From the IMG/VR virus record IMGVR_UViG_2576861133_000001: a stretch of DNA of 19,349 bases; one strand, given 5' to 3'. The position numbers and the translations under genes were made by a program. Shown here in pieces: positions 1 to 18,861 of the stretch (position 1 is the first letter of the stretch; every line of letters begins with the position of its first letter). The notes under the pieces were generated by a model, which saw nothing but the letters and a program-made list of their open reading frames with translations, was not told the DNA's origin and made no database searches. Source of the DNA: a virus (Duplodnaviria; Heunggongvirae; Uroviricota; Caudoviricetes).

Positions 1-144
1 CCTCACGAGGCGTGTGTGCCTTACCGCCACCTTTTCCCATACAGCCTTCCCCTGAATAAATTAACCGCCACTTGCCATTCCGTACAGAAGTCGGATATCC
101 TTCGCCCGAAAAGCATGAAACACATTTCTGCCATGCTAAAGAGA

Positions 145-174
145 AACCCCGGTATCAGCAGATACCGGGGTTTT
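145..174. terminator. Rho-independent terminator-like hairpin, possibly bidirectional; may end the minus-strand late operon about 210 nt after gene I
   Basis: Perfect 10-bp stem ccccggtatc (147-156) / gataccgggg (161-170) with a 4-nt loop, followed by tttt (171-174) on plus and flanked by an A/T-rich stretch on the other side. Confidence 0.5.
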
Positions 175-245
175 CTTTCATGCCCACCGATAATCCTGTT
201 GGTTAAAACCGGTAATGGCATAAAAATTCTGAATATCTTCACATT

Positions 246-273
246 TTCACAAACTGACTGTGGCGCGTATAAT
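246..273 (+). promoter_or_regulatory. Sigma70-like promoter candidate (TTCACA, 16-bp spacer, TATAAT)
   Basis: -35-like ttcaca at 246-251 and consensus -10 tataat at 268-273 with a 16-bp spacer; no ORF with a ribosome-binding site follows before the 339-379 terminator. Confidence 0.35.
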
Positions 274-338
274 TTCTCTGCGTTAATTTTTTTGTCGTGA
301 TATAAGAATAATTCCTTACACTTAATCTTCGTAACTCT

Positions 339-379
339 CCCGCAGTTCCTGTCCGCGATCACTGCGGGATTTTTTTATT
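339..379 (+). terminator. Plus-strand rho-independent terminator
   Basis: Stem cccgcagt (339-346) / actgcggg (361-368) followed by atttttttatt; on the minus strand the stem is not followed by a U-run, so it is plus-specific. Confidence 0.5.
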
Positions 380-383
380 CTTT

Positions 384-1316
384 TTACCCCTGCCGCCCGA
401 TAACCACGACCTTTCCGCCCCCGCCTTCATCACGGGTACTGATGTCCTGGGATATACGGCGGGAGCCAACCAGCATTTCCCCGTAAGGCACCGGCATCGG
501 GTTACCCTGGGCAATCATGTTATCCAGGGAGGAAAAGTACGTGTTCTGTTTACCGTTATCCGTGCTTTTGTACTCCGGTGTTTTTGCCTTCGGGGCCAGC
601 ATCTGGGCCACACCGCCCAGTATCATGCTGGCCCCCAGTGAAAACAGCATCGTGGTGGCAGAAAAACCGCCGGCACTCAGGGCTGTACCCCATAACGCCA
701 TCGAGGCACCGGCAGTGAAGAAAGAGCCCACGATGGCTGCCGCCCCCAGCACAATCTGCAGTCCACCCTTTCCGGCCCCGGCCAGTCGCGGCACAATATG
801 GATGACCGTTCCCTCACCCAGCTGTTCGTGAAGACGGGCGTACACCGCCTCCGGTGCCGTGTCATAACCGGCAATACGTATCTGGTACCAGCCTTCGTTC
901 ATCTGACGGCGAAAGCCCGGCACCTGTAACGACAGCGCCCGGATGGCTTCCGCTGCCGTACCGGCAGTGAAGAAAGAGCCCACGATGGCTGCCGCCCCCA
1001 GCACAATCTGCAGTCCACCCTTTCCGGCCCCGGCCAGTCGCGGCACAATATGGATGACCGTTCCCTCACCCAGCTGTTCGTGAAGACGGGCGTACACCGC
1101 CTCCGGTGCCGTGTCATAACCGGCAATACGTATCTGGTACCAGCCTTCGTTCATCTGACGGCGAAAGCCCGGCACCTGTAACGACAGCGCCCGGATGGCT
1201 TCCGCTGCCGTGTTCACATACAGGCTGAGGCGGCGGCCAAATCGTTGTAAATCCCCGTGAAGGCAGATGCGTGCCAGTGGCGGTGACGCCAGACAGAATG
1301 CGTTCGTCGTTGCCAT
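384..1316 (-). CDS. I: Lambda-type tail tip assembly protein I, carrying an internal 84-aa tandem duplication
   Basis: 310-aa ORF with ATG at 1316; recalled lambda gpI-like segments (HGDLQRFGRRLSLYVNTAAEAIRALSLQ, KQNTYFSSLDNM); sits last in the M-L-K-I order; the first 34 codons overlap the K 3' end. Confidence 0.8.
   Translation of the reverse strand: MATTNAFCLASPPLARICLHGDLQRFGRRLSLYVNTAAEAIRALSLQVPGFRRQMNEGWYQIRIAGYDTAPEAVYARLHEQLGEGTVIHIVPRLAGAGKGGLQIVLGAAAIVGSFFTAGTAAEAIRALSLQVPGFRRQMNEGWYQIRIAGYDTAPEAVYARLHEQLGEGTVIHIVPRLAGAGKGGLQIVLGAAAIVGSFFTAGASMALWGTALSAGGFSATTMLFSLGASMILGGVAQMLAPKAKTPEYKSTDNGKQNTYFSSLDNMIAQGNPMPVPYGEMLVGSRRISQDISTRDEGGGGKVVVIGRQG
708..1211. repeat. Perfect direct tandem duplication, 2 x 252 bp, inside gene I
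   Basis: 708-959 is identical to 960-1211 base for base by manual comparison; the protein segment TAAEAIRALSLQ...GSFFTAG occurs twice. Confidence 0.95.
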
Positions 1317-9162: not shown

Positions 9163-9489
9163 TCATAACACCGTCGGACAACGCAAATCGTAAATCAGCA
9201 CGGAAACAGAAAACGGCAGCTCCCCCTGAAGCAGTTCTTCCCGCTCCGCAAGATCCGGATTCCGGTACAGCATCCCGGTCAGTCGCATGGCAGCCCCCTT
9301 CATCCGGGTTAATGCCTCGCCCGGGATCAGTTCACCGTCCTCACGGATCACTTTATCCCGGCTGCCCTGAATGTAGGCCAGCAGCACGGCGGTAGCCTGA
9401 CGAACCTTGTCCATCAGCATGTCATCATCCGCGTCATGGTCGACACGCAGATGTGCCTTGATCTCTTCCAGTGTCAGTAATGCCGTCAT
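9163..9489 (-). CDS. gp6-like head-tail connector protein
   Basis: 108 aa; N-terminal motif LTLEEIKAHLRVDHDADDD is typical of gp6-type head-tail connectors; its ATG overlaps the portal stop. Confidence 0.7.
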   Translation of the reverse strand: MTALLTLEEIKAHLRVDHDADDDMLMDKVRQATAVLLAYIQGSRDKVIREDGELIPGEALTRMKGAAMRLTGMLYRNPDLAEREELLQGELPFSVSVLIYDLRCPTVL

Positions 9490-12071
9490 TTTCCGCCTCC
9501 TGCATCCCGCCCACGTTTTGCAGCCAGGGTCCAGGCTGATGAATGAGCTTCTCCGGGTTTATCTTCGGTCATACTGTTGCAGTGCCACAGCGAGCCCCCC
9601 CACGTCACCGTATCGCCGGGGTGGTAGGTTTCACCGGCTCTGAACACACCGCGGTAGAGCATCACCGGCAGGGAAAATGTTTTTTCCGTACGCTGGCCAC
9701 TGCTCTGCCGGACCACCACAGAGAACAACCGCTCACCCGTCATGCTGACGTCAATATCCGCCACCCCGTCAACCAGGCATTCCCATCCCCGCATCCCGTG
9801 CGTTTTTTCATACGCCCGCCAGAGTCCGCCCTGGTGTGTGGCATACGTGCCCCGGGGAAAGGATTTTTGATCGTCAATGGCGGGGAGTATTTCCAGAGCC
9901 GTGGCATCACGCCCGTCCTGCGGAGCCGGCAGGGCACTCACCGCATCCAGAACCGCCTTCTGCAGAACATCCGGATCGTAGTCACGACCATCACGCGGAA
10001 CATGAATATGGCTTACCGCCTCCTTCACCATCTGTTCAAGCATCGGACGCACATCATCCGGGGTGAGACTTTTACCGTCTGCCGGCTGCGGAATATTTGC
10101 GACCGCATCATTCACCGCCTTCTGCAGAACATCGGGATCATAGTCACGACCGTCGCGCGGAACAGGGATATGGCTTACAGCCTCCTTCACCATCTGTTCA
10201 AGCATCGGACGCACATCATCCGGGGTGAGACTTTTACCGTCCGCCGGCTGCGGAATATTTGCGACCGCATCATTCACCGCCTTCTGCAGTACTTCCGGAT
10301 CGTAGTCACGACCATCACGCGGAACAGGGATATGGCTTACAGCCTCCTTCACCATCTGTTCAAGCATCGGACGCACATCATCCGGGGTGAGACTTTTACC
10401 GTCCGCCGGCTGCGGAATATTTGCGACCGCATCATTCACCGCCTGCTGCAGTACATCCGGATCATAATCACGACCATCACGCGGTACCGGAATGGCCCCC
10501 ACAGCGTCATCCACCATCGCCTGCAGAACCGGACGCACCTCATCCACCGTCACATGCTTCTGTAATACCGCCGACAGGGAAGTCAGTTTCTCTTCAAACG
10601 CTTGTGCCTGCGAGGCCATCTTCCCCTCAAATGTGCGCTGTAAATCCGCCAGCACTGTGGAGAATTCTTCTCCCAGTGCACGAATAATGGACAGTTCCCG
10701 TTCCGTCATTTTCTCAGTATCCCCCCTGAACATCGCTTTCACCGCATCATGCTCTGTTTCACTGATTGCCTTATTACCGTCAGATGCGCCGTCAGGCAGC
10801 TGTGATGAAACTGTTTTCCCGGCAGACGCGAACGGATCCTCACGGGCATCACGACGGGACAGCGCCTCCAGACTGTAGTTCTGCTGCTGAAGATACAGTG
10901 CATCACCGCCGGCCAGGGGCGGCAGGTTCTCCCGTTTACGGGCCTCATTGGGCGTGAGAAGCGTATTTTTCACCGCATCCCCCAGCGTTTTCATGCGCCG
11001 CTCACTGTCCATTCTCAGCAGCGTGGTGACATCAAATTCTGTACTCTCGTTTTCCCCCGTTTCCAGCGCCTCATCCAGTAACAGTTCAATGGACTCAATC
11101 AGCGTCTGCAGGCACTGGGAATAATACTGCTGCTCCAGCGCCTCCACGTTGTCACTGGAAGGCGGTTGTCCCACGCCAATCTTGTAGGCCGGGACACGGA
11201 ACACCGAACAGACAATTTCAGCGGTCATCTTCAGTTGTTCCACCGTCTGCGCATCCACAGGTGAAAACGTCGTGGGGTTGTATTTTGCCCCGTTGCTCAG
11301 AATGGCCGTTTTCCCCGCATTTTCGCCTGTATACCCGCTGTCCCAGTTGCTCTTCAGTTTTTTCGCATTTTCTTCCGTAATACTGCCGGGGATCTCAATC
11401 ACCCCGGACGGCCTGCCGCCATTTCTGAAAAAAGACGTCGAATTTTCCTGAATATGATGCCCCTGCGTGGCCGCCAGCCCGGCGGCATACACCGGCGGCA
11501 ATCCTATAAGCGGATGAAAAAAACAGTTAAACCGGTCGTGGATCACTTCCCGGGCAGGCACCGTCACCGCCTCCGTGATCCCGCAGTTCCGGTCCGGCGT
11601 GATGCGGTAGAACACCTCGCCGTCATCCGCCACCAGAGGTTCAACCCGGCTCCAGTCCAGAATACGCAGTTCTTTGATCTGCCCCCGGGCATTACGGATT
11701 TTCAGCACCACCGTATTGCCATGACGCAGTTTGGCGTTCAGCCACAGTTCAAAAAACTGGATGCGGTTCTGCTGGGCGTTGGGACGACGACAGAGGCGGG
11801 CAATATCCCCCCGGCGCGTTTCCCTGCGTATCCCATGCGCATCCGTCTGCATAAGACGCAGCCGCATTTTGGCGATATCCTGGGATATCAGCGAAATACA
11901 TGCAAACACCGCATGAAAGGAGAGGACGGCTTCAGGATCGGCTTTCACGCCCTGCTGCCAGGCGCCGGAAAAGGGCTCAGCCACCGCCTGAAACAGGCTG
12001 GTCCAGCCCGCCTCTCTTACGTCACGTCCTGATTTCTGGTTTTTTCGGGTTCGCCGTAAAAGGTTCCACAT
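9486..12071 (-). CDS. HK97-family portal protein with a roughly 350-aa C-terminal extension (tandem 54-aa repeats plus a terminal aromatic-rich domain)
   Basis: The N-terminal roughly 450 aa align by eye to HK97 portal (FRNGGRPSG...KTAILSNGAKY...FRVPAYKIG against recalled FGNGSRPSG...KTAVL...FGVPPHLVG); the C-terminal part is an uninterrupted extension of the same ORF. Confidence 0.8.
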   Translation of the reverse strand: MWNLLRRTRKNQKSGRDVREAGWTSLFQAVAEPFSGAWQQGVKADPEAVLSFHAVFACISLISQDIAKMRLRLMQTDAHGIRRETRRGDIARLCRRPNAQQNRIQFFELWLNAKLRHGNTVVLKIRNARGQIKELRILDWSRVEPLVADDGEVFYRITPDRNCGITEAVTVPAREVIHDRFNCFFHPLIGLPPVYAAGLAATQGHHIQENSTSFFRNGGRPSGVIEIPGSITEENAKKLKSNWDSGYTGENAGKTAILSNGAKYNPTTFSPVDAQTVEQLKMTAEIVCSVFRVPAYKIGVGQPPSSDNVEALEQQYYSQCLQTLIESIELLLDEALETGENESTEFDVTTLLRMDSERRMKTLGDAVKNTLLTPNEARKRENLPPLAGGDALYLQQQNYSLEALSRRDAREDPFASAGKTVSSQLPDGASDGNKAISETEHDAVKAMFRGDTEKMTERELSIIRALGEEFSTVLADLQRTFEGKMASQAQAFEEKLTSLSAVLQKHVTVDEVRPVLQAMVDDAVGAIPVPRDGRDYDPDVLQQAVNDAVANIPQPADGKSLTPDDVRPMLEQMVKEAVSHIPVPRDGRDYDPEVLQKAVNDAVANIPQPADGKSLTPDDVRPMLEQMVKEAVSHIPVPRDGRDYDPDVLQKAVNDAVANIPQPADGKSLTPDDVRPMLEQMVKEAVSHIHVPRDGRDYDPDVLQKAVLDAVSALPAPQDGRDATALEILPAIDDQKSFPRGTYATHQGGLWRAYEKTHGMRGWECLVDGVADIDVSMTGERLFSVVVRQSSGQRTEKTFSLPVMLYRGVFRAGETYHPGDTVTWGGSLWHCNSMTEDKPGEAHSSAWTLAAKRGRDAGGGK
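9869..10546. repeat. About 4.2 tandem copies of a 162-bp (54-aa) near-identical coding repeat inside the portal gene
   Basis: Period-162 registration at 9961, 10123, 10285 and 10447; the three central copies differ by only a few substitutions; protein unit DDVRPMLEQMVKEAVSHIPVPRDGRDYDPDVLQKAVNDAVANIPQPADGKSLTP. Confidence 0.85.
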
Positions 12072-17161: not shown

Positions 17162-17202
17162 GTAAAATCCCCGTCATATGGCAATCAGTAAAGGAAATAA
17201 AT

Positions 17203-17403
17203 ATGTCATCGAAAAACCGGACCCGCAGAACCACAACCCGCAATATCCGTTTCCCCAATCACATAATTGAACAGATCAACATCGCCCTTGAGCATAAAGG
17301 GTCCGGTAACTTTTCAGCGTGGGTTATTGAAGCCTGCAGGAGAAGGCTGGCAACAGATGCAACGCATCTGCGCCCGGCCAGCATGACAAATAACGAGAAA
17401 TGA
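17203..17403 (+). CDS. Small ribbon-helix-helix-like protein, possibly YlcI/YnfO-like (DUF3950-type)
   Basis: 66-aa ORF from ATG 17203 with an AAGGAAA ribosome-binding site 5 nt upstream; sequence NIRFPNHIIEQINIALEHKGSGNFSAWVIEACRRRL resembles RHH-type small prophage proteins (recollection); it is the only plus-strand gene in the window. Confidence 0.5.
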   Translation: MSSKNRTRRTTTRNIRFPNHIIEQINIALEHKGSGNFSAWVIEACRRRLATDATHLRPASMTNNEK

Positions 17404-17601
17404 ACGTTCGGTTTCTTCCACCATCGCACCGGACAGGCGACTATGAGGGGACAACGCCGCGCTCCGTTAACGCGGTAAACCCCGGTGTGTATCGTTTTTG
17501 ATTATCCCCGCACACTCGCGCAGAGGAGTCTCCCTGTCGGGCTGCGGTCTCTGTTAATGCAGGAATACGGCGACAATACCGCGCATGGATAATAAGGTCG
17601 C

Positions 17602-18825: not shown

Positions 18826-18861
18826 ACAAAACCCCGCTTGCTGCCAACAAACGGGGTTTTT
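18826..18861. terminator. Bidirectional rho-independent terminator-like hairpin downstream of the endolysin gene
   Basis: aaaacccccg ... cggggtttt: stem ccccg (18832-18836) / cgggg (18852-18856) extended by A/T pairs, followed by a T-run on plus and an equivalent U-run on minus. Confidence 0.45.

Follow-up and report, generated by a model that had tools for sequence, protein, structure and literature searches.

The window, by which we mean the whole 19,349-bp stretch of DNA analyzed here, comes from a lambda-like prophage of E. coli and spans its late (structural) region, with terminase, head and tail genes, L, K and I on the minus strand. Between tail assembly gene I and the truncated start of host-specificity gene J lies a 343-bp spacer (41–383), in which a promoter, a short transcript body and an intrinsic terminator are arranged on the plus strand, opposite in strand to the late operon (Table 1). 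The assignment of I and J is backed by annotated phage records that are 92.5% identical to window positions 1–500. The first-pass annotation had described a candidate small RNA here, antisense to the 3' untranslated tail of the late operon. Its antisense orientation stands, but the location does not: with the I stop codon at 384–386 and the J start at 40, the unit sits in an internal I–J spacer, inside the operon rather than at its 3' tail. The same position, on the strand opposite the late genes, is found in E2348/69, in the Sakai prophages Sp11, Sp14 and Sp15, in CFT073 and in 15 further loci, and the spacer is without any PGAP annotation in CFT073 and in the 30 RefSeq E. coli genomes among the matches listed.

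Table 1. Features of the I–J spacer and its flanking genes (window coordinates; allele counts refer to the BLAST-collected set).
Feature	Position	Strand	Remarks
Host-specificity gene J, first 40 nt (MGKGGGKAHTPRE...)	1–40	−	ATG at 40; truncated by the window edge
Left module of the I–J spacer, outside the sRNA gene	41–219		Mosaic; hairpin at 144–173 with U-rich tails on both strands
Conserved block ATAAAA	220–225	+	At least 16 of 17 alleles; upstream of the dyad
Conserved block TTCTGAA	227–233	+	At least 16 of 17 alleles; left half of the dyad
Dyad TCTGA-ATATCT-TCACA, candidate regulator site, CRP-like	228–243	+	Half-sites invariant in 17 BLAST-collected alleles; 6-bp spacer varies
Conserved block TCTTCACATTT	236–246	+	At least 16 of 17 alleles; right half of the dyad
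−35 hexamer TTCACA	246–251	+	Sequence read and consensus scan
−10 hexamer TATAAT	268–273	+	16-bp spacer from the −35; ATAAT (269–273) kept in at least 16 of 17 alleles
Start region CTGCGTTA	278–285	+	Conserved in at least 16 of 17 alleles
Predicted PasB-family sRNA, about 97 nt if the start is G280	280–376	+	Aligns with PasB (E2348/69) and EcOnc22 (Sakai)
5' U-run UUUUUUU	287–293	+	In all alleles, with varying length; within the EcOnc22–24 Hfq-CRAC peak
Conserved T-run	288–292	+	At least 16 of 17 alleles; 5' U-run of the RNA
UUCCUUA, anti-Shine-Dalgarno-like, candidate pairing region	312–318	+	Pattern AAnAAyUCC(U/A)U largely conserved
AAUCUUC, best conserved single-stranded block, likely seed core	324–330	+	Just 5' of the terminator
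Intrinsic terminator: 8-bp stem, 16-nt loop, U7 tail	338–376	+	Stem 338–345/362–369; tail 370–376
Conserved block CTGCGGGATTTTTTT	362–376	+	At least 16 of 17 alleles; 3' stem arm and T-run
Tail assembly gene I	384–1316	−	Stop codon 384–386, 7 nt past the sRNA T-run

PPompW-type phages carry an identical copy of the left module of the spacer, but E2348/69 and Sakai have unrelated sequence in its place, with another hairpin. In the window, the hairpin of this module has a stem of 10–13 bp and a z-score of about −6 on either strand; it could be an I–J terminator that is passed by Q-modified polymerase, or it could represent a second RNA of about 70 nt. A weak plus-strand promoter match (9/12) lies upstream of this hairpin at 72–101.

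Several features elsewhere in the window deserve a record. Genes I and L each carry an exact in-frame 252-bp tandem duplication (708–959 = 960–1211 in I; 2204–2454 = 2456–2706 in L), through which each is 84 codons longer than its homologues. A query across the gene I junction found 1,736 genomes, and the best matches listed consist of two split pieces that span one 252-bp unit and do not run through the junction, so that the gene I duplication has the appearance of an artefact of assembly or construction, or else of a very recent event. Within the 861-aa ORF at 9486–12071 there are three copies of a 162-bp-period repeat (9940–10545, 87–94% identical), which gives the protein an internally repeated domain. 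Finally, towards the lysis-side end of the window there is a strong hairpin at 18830–18858, with a 7-bp G+C-rich stem and a 15-nt loop, which is flanked by T-rich tails on either strand and resembles a bidirectional terminator.

The near-consensus sigma-70 promoter that had been proposed for the sRNA is indeed exceptional in the window: TTCACA-16-TATAAT (246–273) scores 11/12 and is the sole match of at least 11/12 on either strand. Among 300 dinucleotide shuffles, such matches averaged 0.07 per shuffle, with any match at all in 6.7%. The −35 hexamer is present as first described, but of the two TTCACA copies it is the one that is conserved less well. The copy at 238–243 is invariant, whereas the one eight bases downstream, at 246–251, decays in divergent alleles to TTTACA, TTTGCA, TCCGCA, TTCTGT or TCCGGC. 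The invariant copy belongs to the upstream dyad, in which invariant half-sites flank a variable 6-bp spacer, the signature of a dimeric regulator site; this suggests that the promoter is activator-dependent. The dyad matches the CRP core TGTGA-N6-TCACA at 9 of 10 positions and is the only match with at most one mismatch in the window, yet 0.56 such matches are expected by chance. Its centre would lie at about −44.5 relative to G280, compared with the canonical CRP positions of −41.5 or −61.5, and does not fit CRP class II geometry. We keep CRP as a lead only; it may be the regulator that binds here.

The claim of a strong plus-strand intrinsic terminator downstream is likewise borne out. Its hairpin starts 65 nt downstream of the promoter, with no ORF between them, and is formed by the G+C-rich arms TCCCGCAG (338–345) and CTGCGGGA (362–369), followed by seven T residues (370–376). 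The predicted fold has a dG of −15.7 kcal/mol and a z-score of −3.9; none of 200 shuffles was as stable, and equally strong terminators occurred at an average of 0.013 per shuffled window. A promoter followed on the same strand by a terminator within 30–300 nt was found in 0 of 300 shuffles. On the minus strand the hairpin (dG −17, z −4.2) is preceded by A7 and followed by AGAGUUACG, with no U-tail, and so it would terminate transcription of the plus strand only. The stem arms and T-run are invariant in both the 18-allele and the 55-allele alignments, and the length and sequence of the loop vary. Being invariant, the stem arms show no compensatory changes.

Between these two signals, the predicted transcript is about 97 nt long, compared with 83–85 nt for its homologues, which leaves about 15 nt of uncertainty at its 5' end; processing there, or imprecision in the published ends, would account for the difference. 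The consensus fold across the alignment contains the terminator only, with the 5' 55–60 nt either unstructured or in allele-specific folds. Two conserved elements stand out in this body. In single-sequence folds UUCCUUA is unpaired or weakly paired, and AUCUU(C/U), to which the second block reduces in the 55-allele alignment, is unpaired in most; in the smaller set, ATCTTC (325–330) is kept in at least 16 of 17 alleles. The predicted RNA thus has the parts of an Hfq-binding module, namely a terminator hairpin, a U7 tail (370–376), a U-run (287–293) and an unstructured body. As the first-pass annotation had stated, no ORF in the interval begins with ATG: the triplet is absent from 274–379, where the sole start-like codon is the GTG at 297–299, followed by ATA TAA.

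Two groups of experimentally detected RNAs align with this unit. PasB (E2348CN_0006), from prophage PP6 of EPEC O127:H6 E2348/69, is an 83-nt RNA at NC_011601.1 1466343..1466261 (−) (Pearl Mizrahi et al. 2021, PMC8550237). It gives a northern band and has log2 fold changes of −6.8 and −2.4 in delta-hfq (PMC8550237 tables S2, S5 and S6). In RIL-seq it has 37 interactions, of which 30 involve CDS or 5'UTR regions, and it takes the second-RNA position in at least 98.7% of its chimeras, which the authors regard as a typical sRNA feature (PMC8550237). PasB is also more abundant in overnight static LB than in DMEM (PMC8550237), a pattern that is compatible with CRP control and not specific to it. 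Table S7 of the same paper has no entry for PasB, and no common target motif is reported for it.

The E2348/69 spacer and that of the window can be aligned from promoter to T-run. The published coordinates fall in a 240-bp spacer of E2348/69, from a tail assembly gene to gpJ, so that PasB and the window unit have in common the I–J site, the orientation and the antisense relation to the late operon. They also share TTCACA-N16-TATAAT, the upstream dyad, the start region, the AUCUUC block, the terminator stem CCCGCAG/CTGCGGG and the U7 tail; the U tract of PasB (PMC8550237 table S5) and that of the window RNA are both 7 nt. The reverse complement of the PasB northern probe, AATCCCGCAGTGATCGCGGAGCT (PMC8550237 table S6), matches the terminator at window 353–372, with 19 of 23 bases contiguous. 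Overall, 65 of 83 positions are identical. The 18 that differ, together with indels, lie mostly in the putative pairing region, the terminator loop has 16 nt in the window compared with 11 nt in PasB, and the module to the left of the promoter is unrelated to that of E2348/69 and 103 bp longer.

The second group comes from EHEC O157:H7 Sakai, where EcOnc22, EcOnc23 and EcOnc24 were identified as Hfq-CRAC peaks in prophages Sp15 (Stx1), Sp14 and Sp11, respectively (Tree et al. 2014, PMC4104026 table S2). They give a northern band of about 85 nt that is destabilized in delta-hfq (PMC4104026), and a later review lists them as confirmed by northern blot and Hfq-CRAC, with targets unknown (PMC7873438). 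The coordinates of Tree et al. refer to the first version of the Sakai genome, which is 128 nt shorter, and we applied a +128-nt shift; this was validated on EcOnc10, which then coincides with the 66-nt HnrS described in 2026. After the shift, all three peaks lie on the plus strand of 240-bp I–J spacers, antisense to the late genes, starting 4–6 nt past the G equivalent to position 280 and ending at the 5' arm of the terminator. The promoter, start region, AUCUUC block and terminator of the window all have aligned counterparts in these Sakai spacers. Over promoter and RNA, the spacers are only about 70% identical to the window, with a degenerate −35 (TCCGGC) and a different body sequence.

PasB and EcOnc22–24 appear to be one family. 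We did not find the link stated in the literature searched, and table S6 of PMC8550237 gives EHEC homologues for other Pas RNAs and none for PasB. The small RNA of about 100 nt that the first-pass annotation had suggested, running on the plus strand from promoter to terminator, thereby gains support from homologues that were detected at the equivalent site.

A recent survey of Pas sRNAs reports PasB variants with few nucleotide differences, among them PasB-2 (C27A), and predicts the PasB seed just 5' of the terminator (Zhu, Shabalina and Storz 2026 preprint, 10.64898/2026.05.13.724894). PasB-2, one base from PasB, is the PPompW-type allele and not the allele of the window. The survey used BLAST with a word size of 28 and coverage above 75% (10.64898/2026.05.13.724894). 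The longest exact word shared by the window and PasB is 25 nt, and a search with word size 28 returns no match, while word size 11 gives only 30% coverage. Given these settings, the few-difference variants reported and the identity of PasB-2, the window allele was very probably not counted, and the allele carried by CFT073, S88, CE10 and ATCC 25922 lies beyond the sequence range of the published PasB survey.

Our own collection of alleles shows how a fixed framework accommodates variable sequence. By BLAST we gathered 18 alleles, from 100% down to about 70% identity, and conservation blocks were taken from 17 of them, leaving out one copy whose promoter is replaced by a sodC insertion. Variation between alleles is found in most of the body, in the promoter spacer and in the terminator loop, and together with the conserved promoter elements, start region, AUCUUC block, stem arms and T-run it makes up the pattern of selection that is usual for sRNA genes. 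A pattern scan of IMG/VR added at least 120 viral contigs, for a total of at least 142 loci with those already collected. These comprise at least 57 distinct alleles, of which 55 of usable length were aligned, and the framework is invariant there as in the 18-allele set. The alignment suggests that promoter spacers, 5' bodies, seed flanks and terminator loops have been reassorted among alleles.

Two observations concern individual loci. In E. coli Z1323PEC0014 (NZ_CP148268.1 389364–390264), the body and terminator are retained beside gene I and the promoter and J side are swapped for sequence adjoining sodC, which leaves a promoter-less sRNA remnant. On the late strand of loci L003–L013, directly opposite the sRNA (window ~296–320, minus strand), a mini-ORF (MSRQK...) has a Shine-Dalgarno AAGGA and an ATG; frameshifts in an A-run give it lengths of 6 to more than 21 aa.

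The family is widespread in E. coli. By megablast, the I–J spacer is present in 1,662 of 5,426 complete E. coli genomes. With the window allele as query and a word size of 11, there are 4,685 places in 1,846 of the 5,426 genomes (34%), with up to nine per genome; PasB as a megablast query finds 999 places in 956 genomes. The window allele itself is identical to the copy in the CFT073 prophage adjoining potB, at NC_004431.1 1364141–1364483, and is shared with many other strains, S88, CE10 and ATCC 25922 among them. Of the 5,426 complete genomes, 633 carry it at 99% identity or more, which makes it the commonest allele there. Nothing relevant emerged when the literature was searched for signs that uropathogenic E. 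coli express the CFT073-type allele. Of the GTDB species representatives, only E. albertii and a single 460-bp contig, filed under Parendozoicomonas, contain the pattern. That contig (NZ_FWPT01000051.1, from the assembly of the marine gammaproteobacterium Parendozoicomonas haliclonae) holds an allele one base from EcOnc22 and is most likely E. coli or phage contamination.

Taken together, the evidence makes it very likely that 228–376 on the plus strand is a complete PasB-family sRNA gene, carried as prophage cargo between I and J and transcribed against the late operon. The RNA that it encodes is, judging by its homologues, most likely an Hfq-dependent, trans-acting base-pairing sRNA made in lysogens. 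In such a scheme, the RNA would be transcribed in the lysogen from its own promoter, possibly through an activator at the TCTGA-N6-TCACA dyad, and Hfq would hold it by the U7 tail and the U-rich body. AAUCUUC, and perhaps UUCCUUA, would then pair with purine-rich regions resembling ribosome-binding sites in host or prophage mRNAs, and this pairing would alter the translation or stability of those mRNAs. Because the bases that flank the invariant core differ between alleles, their target sets probably differ as well. More tentatively, we suggest as a possibility that the I–J spacer holds a recombining sRNA cassette, far more widespread and diverse than published work shows.

The main rival to a trans-acting sRNA is that the RNA acts chiefly in cis on the late mRNA, through pairing or transcription collision that trims J or silences leaky tail transcripts in lysogens, in which case it would resemble oop, sar and other phage antisense RNAs. 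Its full complementarity to the I–J spacer of the late mRNA is given by construction, and both spacer types carry a terminator-like hairpin on the late strand between the sRNA gene and J. Moreover, the late strand facing UCCUU and CAU reads, in about half of the alleles, as the AAGGA and ATG of the mini-ORF, which the sRNA would mask. In the window allele, however, the start of the mini-ORF is gone, its ATG having become ATA (complement of 301–303), and the mini-ORF was never present in E2348/69 PasB or in several other alleles. Unlike the oop and sar type, the RNA (280–376) overlaps neither gene I (from 384) nor the J start region (to ~55), and thus no coding sequence or ribosome-binding site of either gene; it ends 7 nt before the I stop and about 240 nt from the J start. 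The homologues, furthermore, are abundant on Hfq and have many trans partners in lysogens, where transcription of the late operon is not expected. With this balance of evidence, we regard a mainly cis-acting role as improbable.

Far less credible is the proposal that there is no RNA gene here, the hairpin being a stability or processing element of the late mRNA and the promoter a chance match in an AT-rich spacer. The region is AT-rich, and the minus-strand hairpin does fold equally well. Against this, the U7 tail belongs to the plus strand only and is invariant, and the −10, start region and dyad are co-conserved with the hairpin while adjoining spacer modules swap; the paired promoter and terminator arose in none of the shuffles, and the homologues show plus-strand northern bands and Hfq crosslinks. 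A small protein encoded here, on whichever strand, fares just as poorly as an explanation of the interval: mechanical ORFs overlap the interval at 16–300 (+) and 21–362 (−), and some phage records annotate hypothetical proteins of 32–50 aa on the late strand, but 17 of 18 alleles have no plus-strand ORF of at least 8 aa inside the RNA, late-strand ORFs change from allele to allele in reading frame and length and are not always there (with indels of 1, 2 and 5 nt being common), the RefSeq PGAP records noted above annotate none, and we rejected a product of 274–379 on either strand because no ORF is conserved on either strand across the compared alleles.

On the tentative reading of the spacer as a recombining cassette, if the variable flanks do retarget the RNA, each co-resident prophage would add a different regulator built on one chassis, and in strains of extraintestinal pathogenic E. 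coli the CFT073-type allele would be such a regulator. The locus adds no new category: sRNAs that depend on Hfq and are encoded by prophages are well established, and experiments have detected this family twice.

The Rfam search that had been put forward as a check on the small RNA came back empty: with Rfam 15 there were no matches at gathering thresholds in the whole window to any family, Esr41 and STnc100 included, and sub-threshold hits on 1–700 were at chance level, the best having E-values of 0.19 or more. Rfam has no model for the PasB/EcOnc22–24 family, so that independent covariance support is lacking, and with the RefSeq records examined also unannotated, genome scans will go on rediscovering this sRNA gene.

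AgvB/AsxR and the other moron-site sRNAs (Tree et al. 2014) resemble the window RNA in being short, Hfq-binding, prophage-encoded and convergent with late transcription. We rejected identity with them, as those RNAs lie at the moron site downstream of PR' and the window RNA lies in the tail region; RF02702 and RF02703 have no Rfam match in the window.

HnrS (EcOnc10–12), a prophage sRNA that represses hha and is present in multiple copies, up to nine (Poudyal et al. 2026, PMC13502914), is closer in kind. Like the window family, it is multicopy, Hfq-associated and located in the late region of lambdoid prophages of EHEC and EPEC. Its seed, AAUCUUCUACC, has AAUCUUC in common with the conserved block of the window RNA, and the rest of its sequence is unrelated. 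Identity was rejected here too, because EcOnc10 maps between the terminase-adjoining DNase gene and the lysis genes, in a module that the window lacks. At window ~17,200–17,500, a ynfO-like gene stands beside the DNase gene, without the ~230-bp HnrS module of Sakai Sp12.

Because AAUCUUC occurs in both HnrS and the window RNA, we examined hha as a target and found no support for it. The window RNA can match only GAAG of the hha site GGUAGAAG. RNAduplex gave no pairing at the hha ribosome-binding site, in which the window RNA differs from HnrS, and it produced long spurious duplexes. Against the hha initiation region, the window RNA had a z-score of −1.8, with 4% of shuffles as good, and PasB and EcOnc22 did no better than shuffles.

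The closest known system is the PasB/EcOnc22–24 family itself, with which the window unit shares the I–J site, sequence homology and the possession of its own promoter and U-tract terminator. The RNA family is already known, and the copy in the window is an unannotated, divergent allele of it.
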